DNA from: Cyanobacteria bacterium P01_F01_bin.150
GTDB taxonomy: Bacteria; Cyanobacteriota; Cyanobacteriia; CAKZMO01
NCBI GenBank assembly: GCA_039189765.1
Contig: JBCCYL010000023.1
Coordinates: 14,915 to 78,914, forward strand
Reading direction: 5' to 3'
DNA: 64,000 bases
This document shows, one piece after another, positions 58,644-64,000 of the stretch. A program made the translations under genes and the position numbers. A model generated the notes under the pieces. The model had not been told where the DNA came from and did no database searches. It was given only the letters and a program-made list of their open reading frames with translations. Each line of letters opens with the position of its first letter. The first letter of the stretch is position 1.

Positions 58644-60992
58644 TCATGGCTGAAAGCGTCGTAATCGCAGGGCATTAGTGACCACGGACACGGAACTAAA
58701 GGCCATTGCTGCGCCAGCGATAATTGGATTGAGCAACCAGCCAAACAAAGGGTAGAGCAGCCCGGCGGCAATGGGAATGCCTGCAACGTTGTAAATAAAC
58801 GCGAAAAAGAGATTTTGGCGAATATTGCGCATGGTGGCTCGGGATAGCTGAATGGCGGTGACAATGCCCTGGAGGTCTCCAGAAATCAGGGTAATATCGC
58901 TAGCAGCGATCGCCACATCCGTCCCTGTCCCAATCGCCATACCCACATCTGCCTGCGCCAGGGCCGGAGCATCGTTAATGCCATCTCCCACCATTGCCAC
59001 TAAAGTCCGTGCTTTCTGGCCTTGTCCCTGCTCTTGACTTCGGCCCTGTTTTCCATTCCGTTTTGGCCTAAATTGCTGGAGGTGTTTAATCTGGGCGGCT
59101 TTTTGGTCCGGGCGGACCTCTGCGATAACGTGGGAGATATTGACTTGGCGGGCGATCGCATCCGCTGTCCGCTGATTATCTCCCGTTAACATCACCACCT
59201 TGAGCCCCATCTGCTGAAGCGTTTTGATGGCCTGGACCGATGAGGGTTTAATGGCATCAGCAATGGCCAAAATCGCTTCAACTTGACCATCCACTGCCAT
59301 CCACACTATGGTTTTGCCGGATGCTTCCAGATTCTGCCAAAGCTCCTGAAAGTATATGGTATTTAATCCCAACTCAGTCATCCAGCGATAAGAACCGATC
59401 TGGAGCCAATGCCCCAACACCTCTCCTTGCACTCCACACCCAGGAACGGCTGAAAAATCCTGCACATTAGTTAAAGTTGGGGCACTTAGAGCATCAATCT
59501 GTACATCTTGTTCCTGTGCGTATTGCATCACCGCATCCGCCAGGGGATGCTCTGAATTCCGTTCCAGTAAAGCAGCCCATTTAAGCAGTCGTAGTTCATT
59601 GCCATTGGTCGTTCCCCGGACAGTTAGATAGTCCGTAACGGTGGGCTGACCTTGGGTAATCGTTCCTGTTTTATCAAGAACAATCGTGTGAATACTGTGG
59701 GCAAGCTCCAGGCTATCGGCCCCTTTGATCAAAATTCCATGTTCTGCGCCTTTACCAGTACCCACCATAATTGATGTGGGCGTTGCCAACCCCAGGGCAC
59801 AGGGACAGGCAATAATTAGCACCCCCACCGTTGGAATAAGCGCACGGCTTAAAGTGCCAGTGATGCCATACCAGAGGATAAAGGTAAGGAGAGCAATCGC
59901 CATTACCCCCGGCACAAACCACTGTGTCACCTGATCGGCCAGTCGTTGAATCGGCGCTTTAGATCCTTGGGCCTGATGCACCAGCTTAATAATTTGAGCC
60001 AGAACGGTATCTTTACCGACCCTAGTCGCGGTGAATGTAAAACTTCCAGTTTTATTTAAAGTAGCCCCAATAATTTCATCACCAGGGTGCTTTTGGACGG
60101 GCAGACTTTCTCCAGTCACCATCGACTCATCCAGCGTAGCAGTGCCATGCAGCAGTGTTCCATCTACCGGAATTTTTTCCCCCGGTCGCACTCGAATGAC
60201 ATCTCCAACCACCACCGCCGCAATCGGCAGATCCAGTTCTTGTCCGTCCCTAATAATCCGGGCGGTTTTAGCCTGTAGTCCCATCAGCTTACGAATCGCA
60301 TCAGAGGTTTGGGCTTTTGCCCGCTGTTCGAGCGATCGCCCCAGCAAAAGCAGGGCAATAATCACAGCCGCCGCTTCAAAATACACATCCGGCTGCAGTC
60401 CTTGCTGGATAAACCACTGGGGATAAACGGTGGGAAATAACGAATATAAAAAGGCAGTGCCTGTCCCCAAAGCCACTAGGGTATCCATCGTGGCCGTACG
60501 CCGTTTCCAGGCATTCCAGGCATTGACAAAAAATGAACGGCCAGCCCAGGTCATCACAGGCAGGGTAAGAACAAGCTGTAGCCAAGGATTATGCAGCCCA
60601 CTTTGCAACCACAGGGGGATAAACGGTAGCGATAGCCCGGTCATCGCAGGGAATGAACCCACTACCAGCAAGCCGCCAATGACCAGACTGACGACAACCC
60701 TGCACTGAAGCTGTCGGTGTGCTTCTTCCCGTTCAATTCGTTCGCTATCGTCCAAAGAGATAAACCCATCGCCTTCAATAAGCTGCGCAGTGTAACCAGC
60801 AGCTTCGATAGCGGCTTTAATTTTGTCGGTCGCCACCCGGACAGGATTATAGGTAACAGTGGCTTGTTCAGTCCCAAAGTTAACGTGACAGGTATTGACA
60901 CCAGCCACAGACTCGATCGCGTCCTCAATCGTCTTGGCACAAGCAGCACAGGCCATGCCCCGTAGCTTGAAAATTTCAGTATCGAGCGTCAT
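58644..60992 (-). CDS. pacS: Copper-translocating P1B-type ATPase (PacS-like)
   Basis: GMACAAC HMA domain, [47 protein letters not shown]. Confidence 0.9.
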
Positions 60993-61069
60993 GGCTAAAT
61001 TCCTCTATGATGGTAGCGATCGCAATGGTTGAGAGTCTTTGGAAGCGTTTTACTATCAACCTCAGTTTT

Positions 61070-61101
61070 ATTGTCAACTCTCCAGCCGACTAGATGGTCA
61101 A
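61070..61101 (-). promoter_or_regulatory. MerR/CueR-type promoter of the Cu-ATPase
   Basis: -35 TTGACC, 20-nt spacer with imperfect dyad ACCATCTAGTC/GGCTGGAGAGT, -10 GACAAT. Confidence 0.55.
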
Positions 61102-61379
61102 GGGTAGCAACTTACGGTAATGTTGGCTTGTATTAAAATGAAGTTCTTGAATTTTGAGAAATGTTAAAAGGACTATTTTCGTATCAAAAAACACTTTCAT
61201 TTTTTTACTTCTCATTCAACATTAAGGAATAGGAAAAGTTTGTCTTTACACTAATTGAGGTTCTCTTTTTTTGACAATCTCAATAGATTATTGAGGTTCT
61301 TTTCATAGAGATGGCCATTGATTAATGAATGTTTTTCAGTGGCTGTAGTTCAGGTTTGATAATAGTTTTAGACATATAG

Positions 61380-61688
61380 GCTTCTAGGGTTCCGATGAAT
61401 AATCTGCATACAGTCATCCGACTTTGATTTCCAGGCAGAAAGTTGAACGTAAAGCTTTACTTCATTTATCGCTGGATTCAAAAATACAAACGGATTGCTT
61501 AGGCGATTTCTCGAAGTAAATATACCGACGACGATGGGTTACGCTGTCGCTAATCCATCCTACAAGCGGTACATTCTTTTTCGGAAATAGCCTGATAAGT
61601 AAGGTTCTTTCATGACTGGACCGAGAGACGCAAGCAGTTTGATGGCCTCAACCATTAAGCTGTTCACGGAGGGATAAAAGCCCGGGAG
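61380..61688 (+). promoter_or_regulatory. Guanidine-I (ykkC-yxkD) riboswitch aptamer with ~210-nt insertion in the P1 apical loop
   Basis: 5' half GCTTCTAGGGTTCCGATGAA (61380-61399); 3' half TTCATGACTGGACCGAGAGACGC, P2, CACGGAGGGATAAAAGCCCGGGAG (61609-61688). Confidence 0.82.
61533..61563 (-). repeat. GTAG-type REP element
   Basis: Minus strand GTAGGATGGATTAGCGACAGCGTAACCCATC: GTAG tetranucleotide plus imperfect palindrome. Confidence 0.75.
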
Positions 61689-61745
61689 AAAGAAGTGGTT
61701 ACTTGCTCGTAGCTGCCTACTTTTCCTGGGCTTTTGAATTTATTT
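61677..61745 (+). terminator. Riboswitch expression-platform terminator
   Basis: AAAAGCCCGGGAGAAAG pairs with CTTTTCCTGGGCTTTT, T-rich tail; overlaps the aptamer 3' end. Confidence 0.8.
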
Positions 61746-61806
61746 AATTAGCTGAATTACTGTTAATACGTTTACCTATTTTGACCATTTTCTAGGAGCT
61801 GTAGAT

Positions 61807-63321
61807 ATGGAAAGCAAACTAATTGCTTGGGGAATTATTATATTCCTCCTGGCAACCTTAGGCATTGGCGTATGGGCTTCAAAACAAATAAAAGGAGATA
61901 GCGTTAACTTCCTGGTGGCCGGAAGGGGCATGGTTCTTCCATTGGCAGCGGCCACCCTTATGGCCCAATCCGTTGACTCAAATGCCACCCTAGGGAATAC
62001 CGATCTATCCTCTGCATTTGGATTTTGGGCTGGTGCATCCTTGCCCATTGGCCTAGCCCTGTGCCTGTTCCTGACTGGGCTGTTTTATGCCAAACCGATG
62101 AACAGAATGGGGTTGATTACCTTACCGGATTTCTACCGTGTTAAGTACGGACGACTAACGGAGGTGGTGGCCTCCGTTATTATGGTCCTGAGTTTTGCAT
62201 TTTTACTGGCTGGAAATTTAGTGGCAGGAGGGTACCTATTCCAAACCTTCTTGGGCACCAGCTATACGATGGGGGTAATTGGTGTAGCTCTTTTAGTGTT
62301 TGTGTACACAGTCAGTGGCGGTCTTTTTGCAGTGGCCTATACCGATGTGGTGCAGGTGGGAATTGCCCTAGTTGGTTCTCTCGTTTTGATTGGCTATGTC
62401 AGTACGACCTTTGGACTTGTCATTCCGCCTGGGACCGGTCCCTTTGCTCTTGAACAATTGACCTCACCAGATGCGGGAGCGGCCATTAATTGGGCGACCC
62501 TATTGGCGTTGGGATTAGGTGACATTGTAGCGATCGACTTTATGGCACGGGTATTTGCAGCAGAGAGTCCTGAAACTGCTCAAAGAGCCTGCTTTATCGG
62601 CTGTGCAGGGACTCTGATTATTGGCATTCCCTTTTCGCTGATTGCCTTGTCCTCAAATTCCATTTTAGAACAAGCCGGAGTGACGGCAGATGGGCCAGTT
62701 TTGTTTTCCCTGTTGGAAAATGTGATTCCTCCAGTTCTAAGCTTGGTGATTATTGTGGCCATTATGGCAGCGTCTCTTTCAACGGGGGATGGGGCTATTT
62801 TAGGAACTTCATCGGTGATGGCTCACAATATTATGGGCATCCGCCATGGTTCGGGACATGATGAGGGACATGGTGTCAATAAAGGCGATCGCCTTTTGCT
62901 AATCACCCGTATTATGGCGGCGGTAATTACCTTGATGGGAGTCTTTTTTGCTCTCCGGGTTCCTCAAACAGGTTCGTTACTGCTGCTTGCGTTTGACCTT
63001 GGCTTTGCGGGGCTAGTGGTCCCTTTGACCGGAGGCCTCTTCTGGTATCGCTCAACCTGGCAGGGGGCAATGGCCTGCATTATCACAGGATCTTTAACTC
63101 GATTGGTGATGTTTGTCTTGATGCCAACCATGTTTGGGGTAGACAATACCTTGCTTTATATCCCCAATAGTTTATTTACCGCTGGGTTTGATGGTATCCC
63201 TACGCTGATTAGTCCTCTGATCGGTCTGATTGCCTTTGTTACAGTGTCCAATCTGACCTACACTCCGCCCAAGCCTGATCGTCGTGCCCTTGAACGCCAG
63301 ATGTCTGAAGTGGCGCGTTGA
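61807..63321 (+). CDS. Sodium:solute symporter (SSS) family transporter
   Basis: ~13 TM; FLVAGR, TLPDFYR..YG, YTVSGGL.AVAYTDV.Q, AASLST.D; AGGAG RBS. Confidence 0.92.
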   Translation: MESKLIAWGIIIFLLATLGIGVWASKQIKGDSVNFLVAGRGMVLPLAAATLMAQSVDSNATLGNTDLSSAFGFWAGASLPIGLALCLFLTGLFYAKPMNRMGLITLPDFYRVKYGRLTEVVASVIMVLSFAFLLAGNLVAGGYLFQTFLGTSYTMGVIGVALLVFVYTVSGGLFAVAYTDVVQVGIALVGSLVLIGYVSTTFGLVIPPGTGPFALEQLTSPDAGAAINWATLLALGLGDIVAIDFMARVFAAESPETAQRACFIGCAGTLIIGIPFSLIALSSNSILEQAGVTADGPVLFSLLENVIPPVLSLVIIVAIMAASLSTGDGAILGTSSVMAHNIMGIRHGSGHDEGHGVNKGDRLLLITRIMAAVITLMGVFFALRVPQTGSLLLLAFDLGFAGLVVPLTGGLFWYRSTWQGAMACIITGSLTRLVMFVLMPTMFGVDNTLLYIPNSLFTAGFDGIPTLISPLIGLIAFVTVSNLTYTPPKPDRRALERQMSEVAR

Positions 63322-63878: not shown

Positions 63879-64000
63879 AGAATTTTAATTCTGAGCTTCC
63901 AACGTGGTGGGGGGGGGGGGGGGCCCCCCCCCCCCAAAACATAAGAAAAAAACAAAAATAATAAGTTGTTAGATAAGAGAAATTAAAAGTGGTAAAGAAA

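Follow-up and report, generated by a model that had tools for sequence, protein, structure and literature searches.

A guanidine-I riboswitch locus with a transposable element in the P1b region of its aptamer in Cyanobacteria bacterium P01_F01_bin.150

In the present study, a locus of Cyanobacteria bacterium P01_F01_bin.150 has been analysed in which a guanidine-I (ykkC) aptamer is divided into its conserved 5′ strand and its 3′ part by an enlarged P1b region of 224 nt (61394-61617, + strand), and this region contains a 91-nt MITE (61502-61592, + strand) that belongs to a multi-copy family of the same genome. All coordinates refer to the window, which is the whole stretch of 64,000 nucleotides under analysis. 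The aptamer core is intact and it is followed by an intrinsic terminator of the usual design and by the gene of a sodium:solute symporter. Judged by every sequence criterion, the database score excepted, the locus is a guanidine-I riboswitch. On balance we consider it somewhat more probable than not that it is a working transcription-termination ON switch for the symporter gene and that its P1b was enlarged in two steps; the order of these insertion events and the continued switching are what we infer from the features described below.

Anatomy of the aptamer, its detection and the downstream gene

The order of the elements along the + strand was found to be GCTTC-CTAGGGTTCC, GATGAA, 209 further bases, TTCATGACT, GGACCGAGAG and GACGC. 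The aptamer 5′ strand (61380-61393), which can be read directly from the sequence, consists of the P1 5′ arm GCTTC (61380-61384) and of CTAGGGTTCC (61384-61393), and it is the block that is invariant in the alignment of 29 relatives. The P1b region behind it is closed by a stem of ATGAA (61395-61399) with TTCAT (61609-61613), continued by AATCT with AGGTT (5 + 5 pairs), and in the folds it closes as a three-way junction. The 3′ part begins at 61618 with GGACCGAGAG (61618-61627), which supplies the P1a 3′ strands and the internal loop, and with the P1 3′ arm GACGC (61627-61631), so that this element spans 61618-61631. It is followed by the P2 hairpin of about 13 pairs between AGCAGTTTGATGG and CCATTAAGCTGTT (61633-61664), which is seen in the folds as well as in the Rfam alignment, and by the 3′ conserved core CACGGAGGGATAAAAGCCCGGGAG (61665-61688), which includes the three pairs of P3 between GGG (61671-61673) and CCC (61681-61683). 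All of these elements lie on the + strand. In P1, four of the five positions of GCTTC and GACGC form standard pairs and there is a single U.C mismatch, while the GG/CC and CC/GG pairs of P1a are present.

In the aptamers of 30 relatives the P1b loop measures 18-71 nt, against 224 nt at this locus. All 30 share one layout, namely xGCTT-CTAGGGTTCC, a loop that opens with G(A/G) and closes with TG.CT, and then GG.CCGAGAG-AAGC. The P01_F01_bin.150 locus matches this layout except for the length of the loop and for the P1 3′ arm, which reads ACGC instead of AAGC, and the flanks of CTAGGGTTCC also agree with the relatives' pattern GCTT-CTAGGGTTCC-GA...TGACT. The core nucleotides CUAGGGUUCC, GG.CC.AGAG and CACGG.GGGA.AAAAGCCCGGGAG are present. 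By inspection of the alignment, the locus retains every one of the 39 columns that are invariant among 29 relatives (L037 was omitted as a near duplicate of L036). The sole deviation of the core is an A replacing the 90%-conserved U of GGUCC, and the same A occurs in the L048 aptamer of genome G009. The initial annotation had proposed a guanidine-I aptamer split in the apical region of P1b, with its two halves about 210 nt apart. This proposal agrees with the 39 retained positions, with the layout of the relatives and with a 3′ match in Rfam, and the separation was found to be 224 nt between the conserved blocks CTAGGGTTCC and GGACCGAGAG, or 209 nt if it is counted from one arm of the closing stem to the other.

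The 10-mer CTAGGGTTCC has 15 copies on the two strands of the 10.6-Mb genome, where about 20 are expected, and the 3′ core motif occurs a single time in the whole assembly. A same-strand copy of the 10-mer would hence be met within about 230 nt upstream of this core by chance with a probability of ~1e-4. On these counts, chance does not account for the distant CTAGGGTTCC that precedes the single 3′ core of the genome.

With the Rfam model RF00442, the native locus gave a match at 61594-61690 alone, which scored 35 bits against a gathering cut-off of 63, and the cut-off is missed because the model is unable to span 224 nt. In this alignment the P1 strand is deleted and TAAGGTTCT (61600-61608) substitutes as the 5′ strand. 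The same match is the only one of RF00442 in the 10.6-Mb assembly, and the only guanidine-I riboswitch of P01_F01_bin.150 thereby goes unannotated. A covariance model constructed from 29 relatives produced a local match at 61587-61695 (48.1 bits) which does not bridge the insert; when the halves were searched apart with this model, the 3′ part reached 38.4 bits and the 5′ half was not recovered. The truncation that had been foreseen for covariance models is therefore seen with both of them. The effect of excision was studied with an nhmmer sequence profile of the 29-relative alignment on coordinate-edited sequence. On the native sequence the profile gave two separate matches, one at profile positions 39-125 (50.1 bits) and one at positions 6-32 (13.1 bits), the latter being the aptamer 5′ strand as a match of its own. 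Deletion of 61400-61608 gave one match over profile positions 6-125 with 67.9 bits, and deletion of the MITE together with one copy of its target duplication (61502-61595) gave one match of 61.8 bits. The full-length match expected after removal of 61400-61608 was thus obtained (67.9 vs 50.1 bits), by a sequence profile, which is weaker than an Infernal search.

The intrinsic terminator (61676-61745, + strand) is intact, as had been stated earlier, and is composed of a 5′ arm (61676-61692), a 3′ arm (61720-61735) and a T-rich tail. Its 5′ arm, starting with AAAAGCCCGGGAG, overlaps the P3 3′ strand and GGGAG, and its design is equal to that in the leaders of eight relatives. In guanidine-I ON switches, the bound ligand keeps the terminator segment in the aptamer and termination fails. 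A promoter scan of the + strand gave no site near 61370; the only + strand site was at 61029-61056, and the number of sites was not above that in shuffled sequences. Transcriptional control by a guanidine-I riboswitch has been confirmed at gdmH of Synechocystis sp. PCC 6803 (PMC12704784).

The gene behind the terminator (61807-63321, + strand; AGGAG at 61795-61799) encodes a protein of 504 aa of the sodium:solute symporter family, assigned by Pfam (PF00474, E = 1.9e-29) and NCBIfam. Its ORF is intact and its nearest ortholog, in G009, has 89% amino acid identity. Orthologs of this symporter lie directly behind full-length, over-cut-off guanidine-I aptamers in G005, G006, G010, G011 and G024, and likewise at 4 of the 20 metagenome loci scanned (L089, L090, L091 and L093), the best metagenome ortholog being 78% identical; the more distant orthologs were found without a guanidine-I aptamer. 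As the close orthologs also follow guanidine-I aptamers, the symporter may be regarded as a candidate guanidine-regulon transporter. The Synechocystis study mentions an unidentified low-affinity uptake route (PMC12704784), and our literature search found no paper joining a guanidine riboswitch with a solute symporter. The contig that carries the 89% ortholog (L063, G009:C586) stops inside the terminator, at the place where the riboswitch would begin, and a repeat at this contig end might be the cause of the break. A CopA-like P-type ATPase gene is located upstream of the symporter locus in divergent orientation. The HIP1 octamer, a hallmark of cyanobacteria, occurs 11,400 times in the genome, where about 120 occurrences are expected. 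Elsewhere in the window, a long palindrome of a G-run and a C-run was noticed at 63880-63942, at the end of the region of a GNAT acetyltransferase gene, and it gives weak, chance-level Rfam matches to blv_FSE and Clostridiales-2.

The MITE, the hairpin next to it and enlarged aptamers of relatives

The MITE at 61502-61592 was delimited by the alignment of 33 near-full copies in the genome, the riboswitch copy counted, and its ends fall exactly where they had first been placed. It consists of terminal inverted repeats, GGCGATTTCTCGAA... and ...TTCGGAAATAGCC, around an inner palindrome; the repeats are paired in the fold, which has an energy of -30.6 kcal/mol (z = -4.0). A search at E <= 1e-5 gave 42 matches. 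When the ends were searched at <=3 mismatches, 51 left and 45 right ends were found, mostly paired about 91 nt apart, and six copies are paired about 114 nt apart owing to an extra insert of 23 nt. Identical 3-nt flanks are present in 25 of the 33 copies (14 TAA, 7 TTA, 2 CTA and 2 TCA), which points to a 3-bp T(W)A target duplication. At the riboswitch, the comparison of flanks over the 33 copies gives TTA (61499-61501) as the left duplication copy and TGA (61593-61595) as the right one, with one mismatch to TTA, i.e. two of three bases equal. The riboswitch copy differs from the consensus at 4 of 91 positions (95.6% identity).

No pair of these ends lying 340-3900 bp apart, as a parent IS would have, was found in the 350-contig assembly, which is weak evidence, as bins frequently lack IS copies for reasons of assembly. 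In the order (17 genomes), high-identity copies are confined to P01_F01_bin.150; G003 has three full-length copies at 76%, and 10 of the 16 other genomes have the inner palindrome, of about 32 nt, by itself. The MITE family is nested or composite. The inner palindrome (61532-61564) was seen to be dispersed independently, e.g. with 22 matches in G011, and its central loop is inverted in 3 of the 33 MITE copies.

The initial annotation had described two mobile hairpins in the insert. This holds for 61502-61592, the repeat with 33 copies, and it does not hold for 61400-61501, which proved unique in the genomes searched: further copies were absent from its own genome, from the 16 other genomes of the order and from 400 genomes of the class, where matches of 23-46 nt were found at chance level only. 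The first unit, placed earlier at about 61408-61500, is confirmed by the fold as a self-pairing hairpin, whereas its mobility is not borne out by any second copy in the genomes searched. From the fold and the copy searches, this unit 1 (61411-61499, + strand) is a long imperfect hairpin of unique sequence with an energy of -20.1 kcal/mol (z = -2.4; 4 of 200 shuffles equally stable). When the MITE was deleted in silico, unit 1 stacked on the closing stem to give one continuous P1b of about 130 nt, and the TTA target is situated near the base of the unit 1 hairpin, on its 3′ side. To judge from the sequence, 61400-61501 appears to be a long P1b peculiar to the lineage, and the 134-nt P1b loop of G013, also of unique sequence, is a comparable case. 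Our reading is that a long lineage-specific P1b was later hit by one MITE, rather than that two mobile elements were stacked. The search for an empty site, which had been suggested as a check, gave neither an empty-site allele nor a second genome with the insertion among the relatives, the contigs of sequencing runs and the metagenome orthologs, and hence no sign that the insertion has been retained over time.

The survey with RF00442 covered 61 genomes, i.e. the genome itself and 60 relatives, and returned 49 rows, of which 41 exceeded the cut-off and 8 fell short of it; the rows came from 36 genomes. The eight sub-threshold rows correspond to five loci, one of them the P01_F01_bin.150 locus, and all five have a complete core together with an enlarged P1b or P2. 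In G013 (L078, G013:C460) the sub-threshold aptamer has a P1b loop of 134 nt of unique sequence. In G006 (L076, G006:C273) and G010 (L077, G010:C470), also sub-threshold, P2 is enlarged to about 97 nt, the insert of G006 being unique. In G026 (L080, G026:C74:221700-222300, minus strand) the aptamer lies at about G026:C74:221915-222145 and has a P2 of 146 nt, of which about 107 nt are a multi-copy repeat unrelated to the 61502-61592 MITE, with 8 further copies at >=90% identity in G026 and 30 further matches overall. This aptamer is 78 nt upstream of an intact arginase-family, gdmH-like ORF, and in Rfam it is broken into two pieces, which score 44.9 and 31 bits and are both below the cut-off. 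The P1b loops of G036 and G059 (71 and 69 nt) are of unique sequence and contain no repeats. The earlier idea that P1b is the one tolerant spot of this aptamer is not supported, as P2 is enlarged in G006, G010 and G026, and in G026 by a multi-copy repeat. The P1b repeat of P01_F01_bin.150 and the P2 repeat of G026 together show that mobile hairpins have entered guanidine-I aptamers at least two times, and in different helices.

Folding of the leader and competing explanations

The history that we favour would have two steps. The lineage would have had, or would have gained, a long unique hairpin that brought P1b to about 130 nt, and the 91-nt MITE, whose family is active in the genome, would then have transposed into the TTA near the base of this hairpin, duplicating its target and turning the P1b stem into a three-way junction. 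Unit 1 and the MITE would each fold on themselves and thereby bring the 5′ strand beside the 3′ part, so that P1, P1a, P2, P3 and the ligand pocket could still form. Guanidine binding would keep the GCCCGGGAG segment in the aptamer, the overlapping terminator would be blocked and the symporter gene would be transcribed.

The folding of the full leader is consistent with this explanation. In the MFE fold of 61375-61745 the insert is bridged by pairing; this fold has z = -4.3, and none of 100 shuffles was as stable. The pairing of the two halves across the gap, which had been proposed at the outset, is accordingly seen in the model, with ATGAA and TTCAT paired as claimed and with P1 at 4/5 pairs including its U.C mismatch; on this modelling, the helices P1, P1a, P1b, P2 and P3 can form. 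The fold cost of the aptamer, defined as the energy needed to impose the consensus P1, P1a and P3 pairs relative to the free ensemble, was 7.1 kcal/mol in the native sequence; it fell to 5.3 when the MITE was removed and to 4.9 when the whole insert was removed, so the insert raises it by about 2 kcal/mol. In 29 correctly anchored relatives the fold cost ranged from 1.2 to 10.0 kcal/mol, and 5 of the 29 were above the native value. L035 was excluded from this set since its anchor landed on the second GGCCCGAGAG, in its P2; with L035 the set (n = 30) has a mean of 3.5 and a maximum of 11.5. A bulged P1 register, GCUU/AAGC with a 4-nt bulge, was also considered and was rejected, since the contiguous register is favoured over it by about 7 kcal/mol.

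In the MFE folds of the nascent RNA, 61380-61398 is first paired with the left end of the MITE (61499-61517), and the consensus P1/P1a/P1b closure appears from a transcript end of 61640-61680 on. The early pairing comprises about 14 pairs and persists until the right arm of the MITE has been transcribed. These folds suggest that it may possibly act as a kinetic trap or delay, which they do not require.

The most serious rival to a working switch is one that was killed recently, and we regard this as rather unlikely though deserving of weight. According to it, the MITE and the P1 mismatch hinder the timely folding of the aptamer, the default terminator always forms and the symporter is silenced, while the core looks intact merely through the shortness of time. 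The copy of the MITE is young, at 95.6% identity to its consensus, and with only 4 of 91 differences the time since insertion may have been too short for decay of a dead switch; the intact core is for this reason weak evidence for function. The P1 U.C mismatch is found in none of the 29 correctly anchored relatives, which have five standard P1 pairs without exception. Moreover, the native fold cost exceeds that of 24 of the 29 relatives, and the transient pairing of the 5′ strand with the left end of the MITE in the nascent-chain folds would act in the same direction. At the thresholds used, the aptamer and the symporter were both missing from the three same-genus genomes (85-97% complete), and the locus may therefore be dispensable. 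On the other hand, at a divergence of about 4% some 1-2 neutral changes would be expected in the 39 invariant positions and none was seen, which is a weak argument; the symporter ORF of 504 aa is intact, the MFE fold still closes, and an independent repeat-bearing aptamer stands before an intact gdmH-like ORF in G026.

It is improbable, in our estimation, that the MITE hairpin has a leader function of its own, as a site of RNase III or RNase E processing or as a pause site, by which it would alter the half-life of the mRNA or the timing of the switch while guanidine sensing by the aptamer is preserved. RNases cleave certain MITE hairpins, for instance those of the Correia and ERIC elements. 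The hairpin at the locus is long and nearly perfect (-30.6 kcal/mol, z = -4.0, as given above), and its four private substitutions (three A-to-G and one C-to-T on the + strand) all maintain or better the RNA pairing, as judged by inspection of the fold. However, four substitutions are too few to speak of selection, as this outcome would be met by chance in about 1 of 10 cases given the transition bias, and the other copies of the MITE stand in unrelated contexts.

That the working aptamer is confined to the 3′ unit (61594-61690), in which TAAGGTTCT (61600-61608) would serve as the 5′ strand, the upstream CTAGGGTTCC being a leftover or a coincidence, is very improbable. Both covariance models do favour a local alignment on the native sequence (35 and 48.1 bits), but such a unit would be without any P1 strand, 4-6 model positions are deleted in its alignments, it departs from the 29 relatives at two of their invariant positions and its score is below the Rfam cut-off. 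Besides, the folds use the AGGTT of this unit as the 3′ arm that extends P1b, and the upstream CTAGGGTTCC is exact and has the right flanks.

Least probable of all is an assembly artefact in which a repeat was misplaced in the leader during assembly of the metagenome bin: the bin has 350 contigs and the MITE more than 30 copies, but both flanks are parts of one aptamer and carry the 3-bp duplication of the MITE family, and contigs of run X1, which is probably the source sample and hence not fully independent of the assembly, match 60900-61584 and 61564-62300 without difference and so cross each junction between the MITE and unique sequence. The contigs of three runs included no joint that skips the MITE, two minor runs covering the conserved parts only.

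Comparison with known systems and meaning of the locus

The locus shares with the guanidine-I class RF00442, for which the gdmH switch of Synechocystis sp. PCC 6803 is an example (PMC12704784), the core, the helices and a terminator overlapping GCCCGGGAG; the organisms belong to the same class, and orthologs of the downstream gene stand behind ordinary aptamers. It differs in the 224-nt P1b with a transposable element, in its score of 35 against 63 bits, and in the regulated gene, which is a sodium:solute symporter and not gdmH or the gimABC transporter. The 61502-61592 MITE resembles, in its general features, the Nezha and Microcystis MITEs of cyanobacteria (PMC3184786) in its small size, its terminal inverted repeats, its short target duplication, its many copies and its stable fold, whereas it is without an IS-sized partner in the assembly and contains a nested palindrome that spreads alone. 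In the leader of the pneumococcal trp genes, a BOX element is present between two T-box riboswitches and the authors concluded that the regulation appears to persist (Croucher et al. 2011, PMC3049150). In both cases the transcribed leader of a riboswitch includes a mobile hairpin repeat, but the BOX element lies between two complete aptamers, whereas the MITE of P01_F01_bin.150 is placed inside a helix of a single aptamer. The reviews PMC10969869 and PMC3184786 make general remarks on repeats and riboswitches. Our search of the openly accessible literature found no report of a MITE inside a riboswitch aptamer.

For a structured RNA of another kind, Vioque in 1997 (Nucleic Acids Res 25:3471) is said to have described STRR repeats inside the RNase P RNA gene of heterocyst-forming cyanobacteria. 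The likeness would be that a structured RNA of cyanobacteria makes room for repetitive DNA in one of its peripheral helices; the STRR are tandem heptamer repeats in a ribozyme, whereas the present case is a transposon-like MITE in a ligand-sensing switch.

A wider proposition can be put forward only tentatively, and we lean slightly to doubting it as a whole: the outer helices of cyanobacterial guanidine-I riboswitches may be recurrent and tolerated landing sites of MITEs, the switch of P01_F01_bin.150 may work although its aptamer, at about 310 nt, has roughly three times the usual size, and annotation based on thresholds may systematically overlook giant functional sensors of this kind. A dead switch would make the locus an ordinary transposon lesion in a regulatory RNA. 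If it works, it would be a natural experiment in which one of the peripheral helices of a ligand-sensing RNA has taken up over 200 nt of foreign sequence that folds on itself, and it would bear on the evolution of riboswitches and on the co-option of mobile hairpins into RNA structure. It would further bear on the choice of graft sites in guanidine sensors, which are already tools in cyanobacteria (PMC12704784). The cut-offs of covariance models overlook loci with enlarged stems, and this is a blind spot of annotation. Hence, the main value of this locus lies in providing a natural test of the tolerance of a riboswitch to insertion, together with an example of that blind spot.
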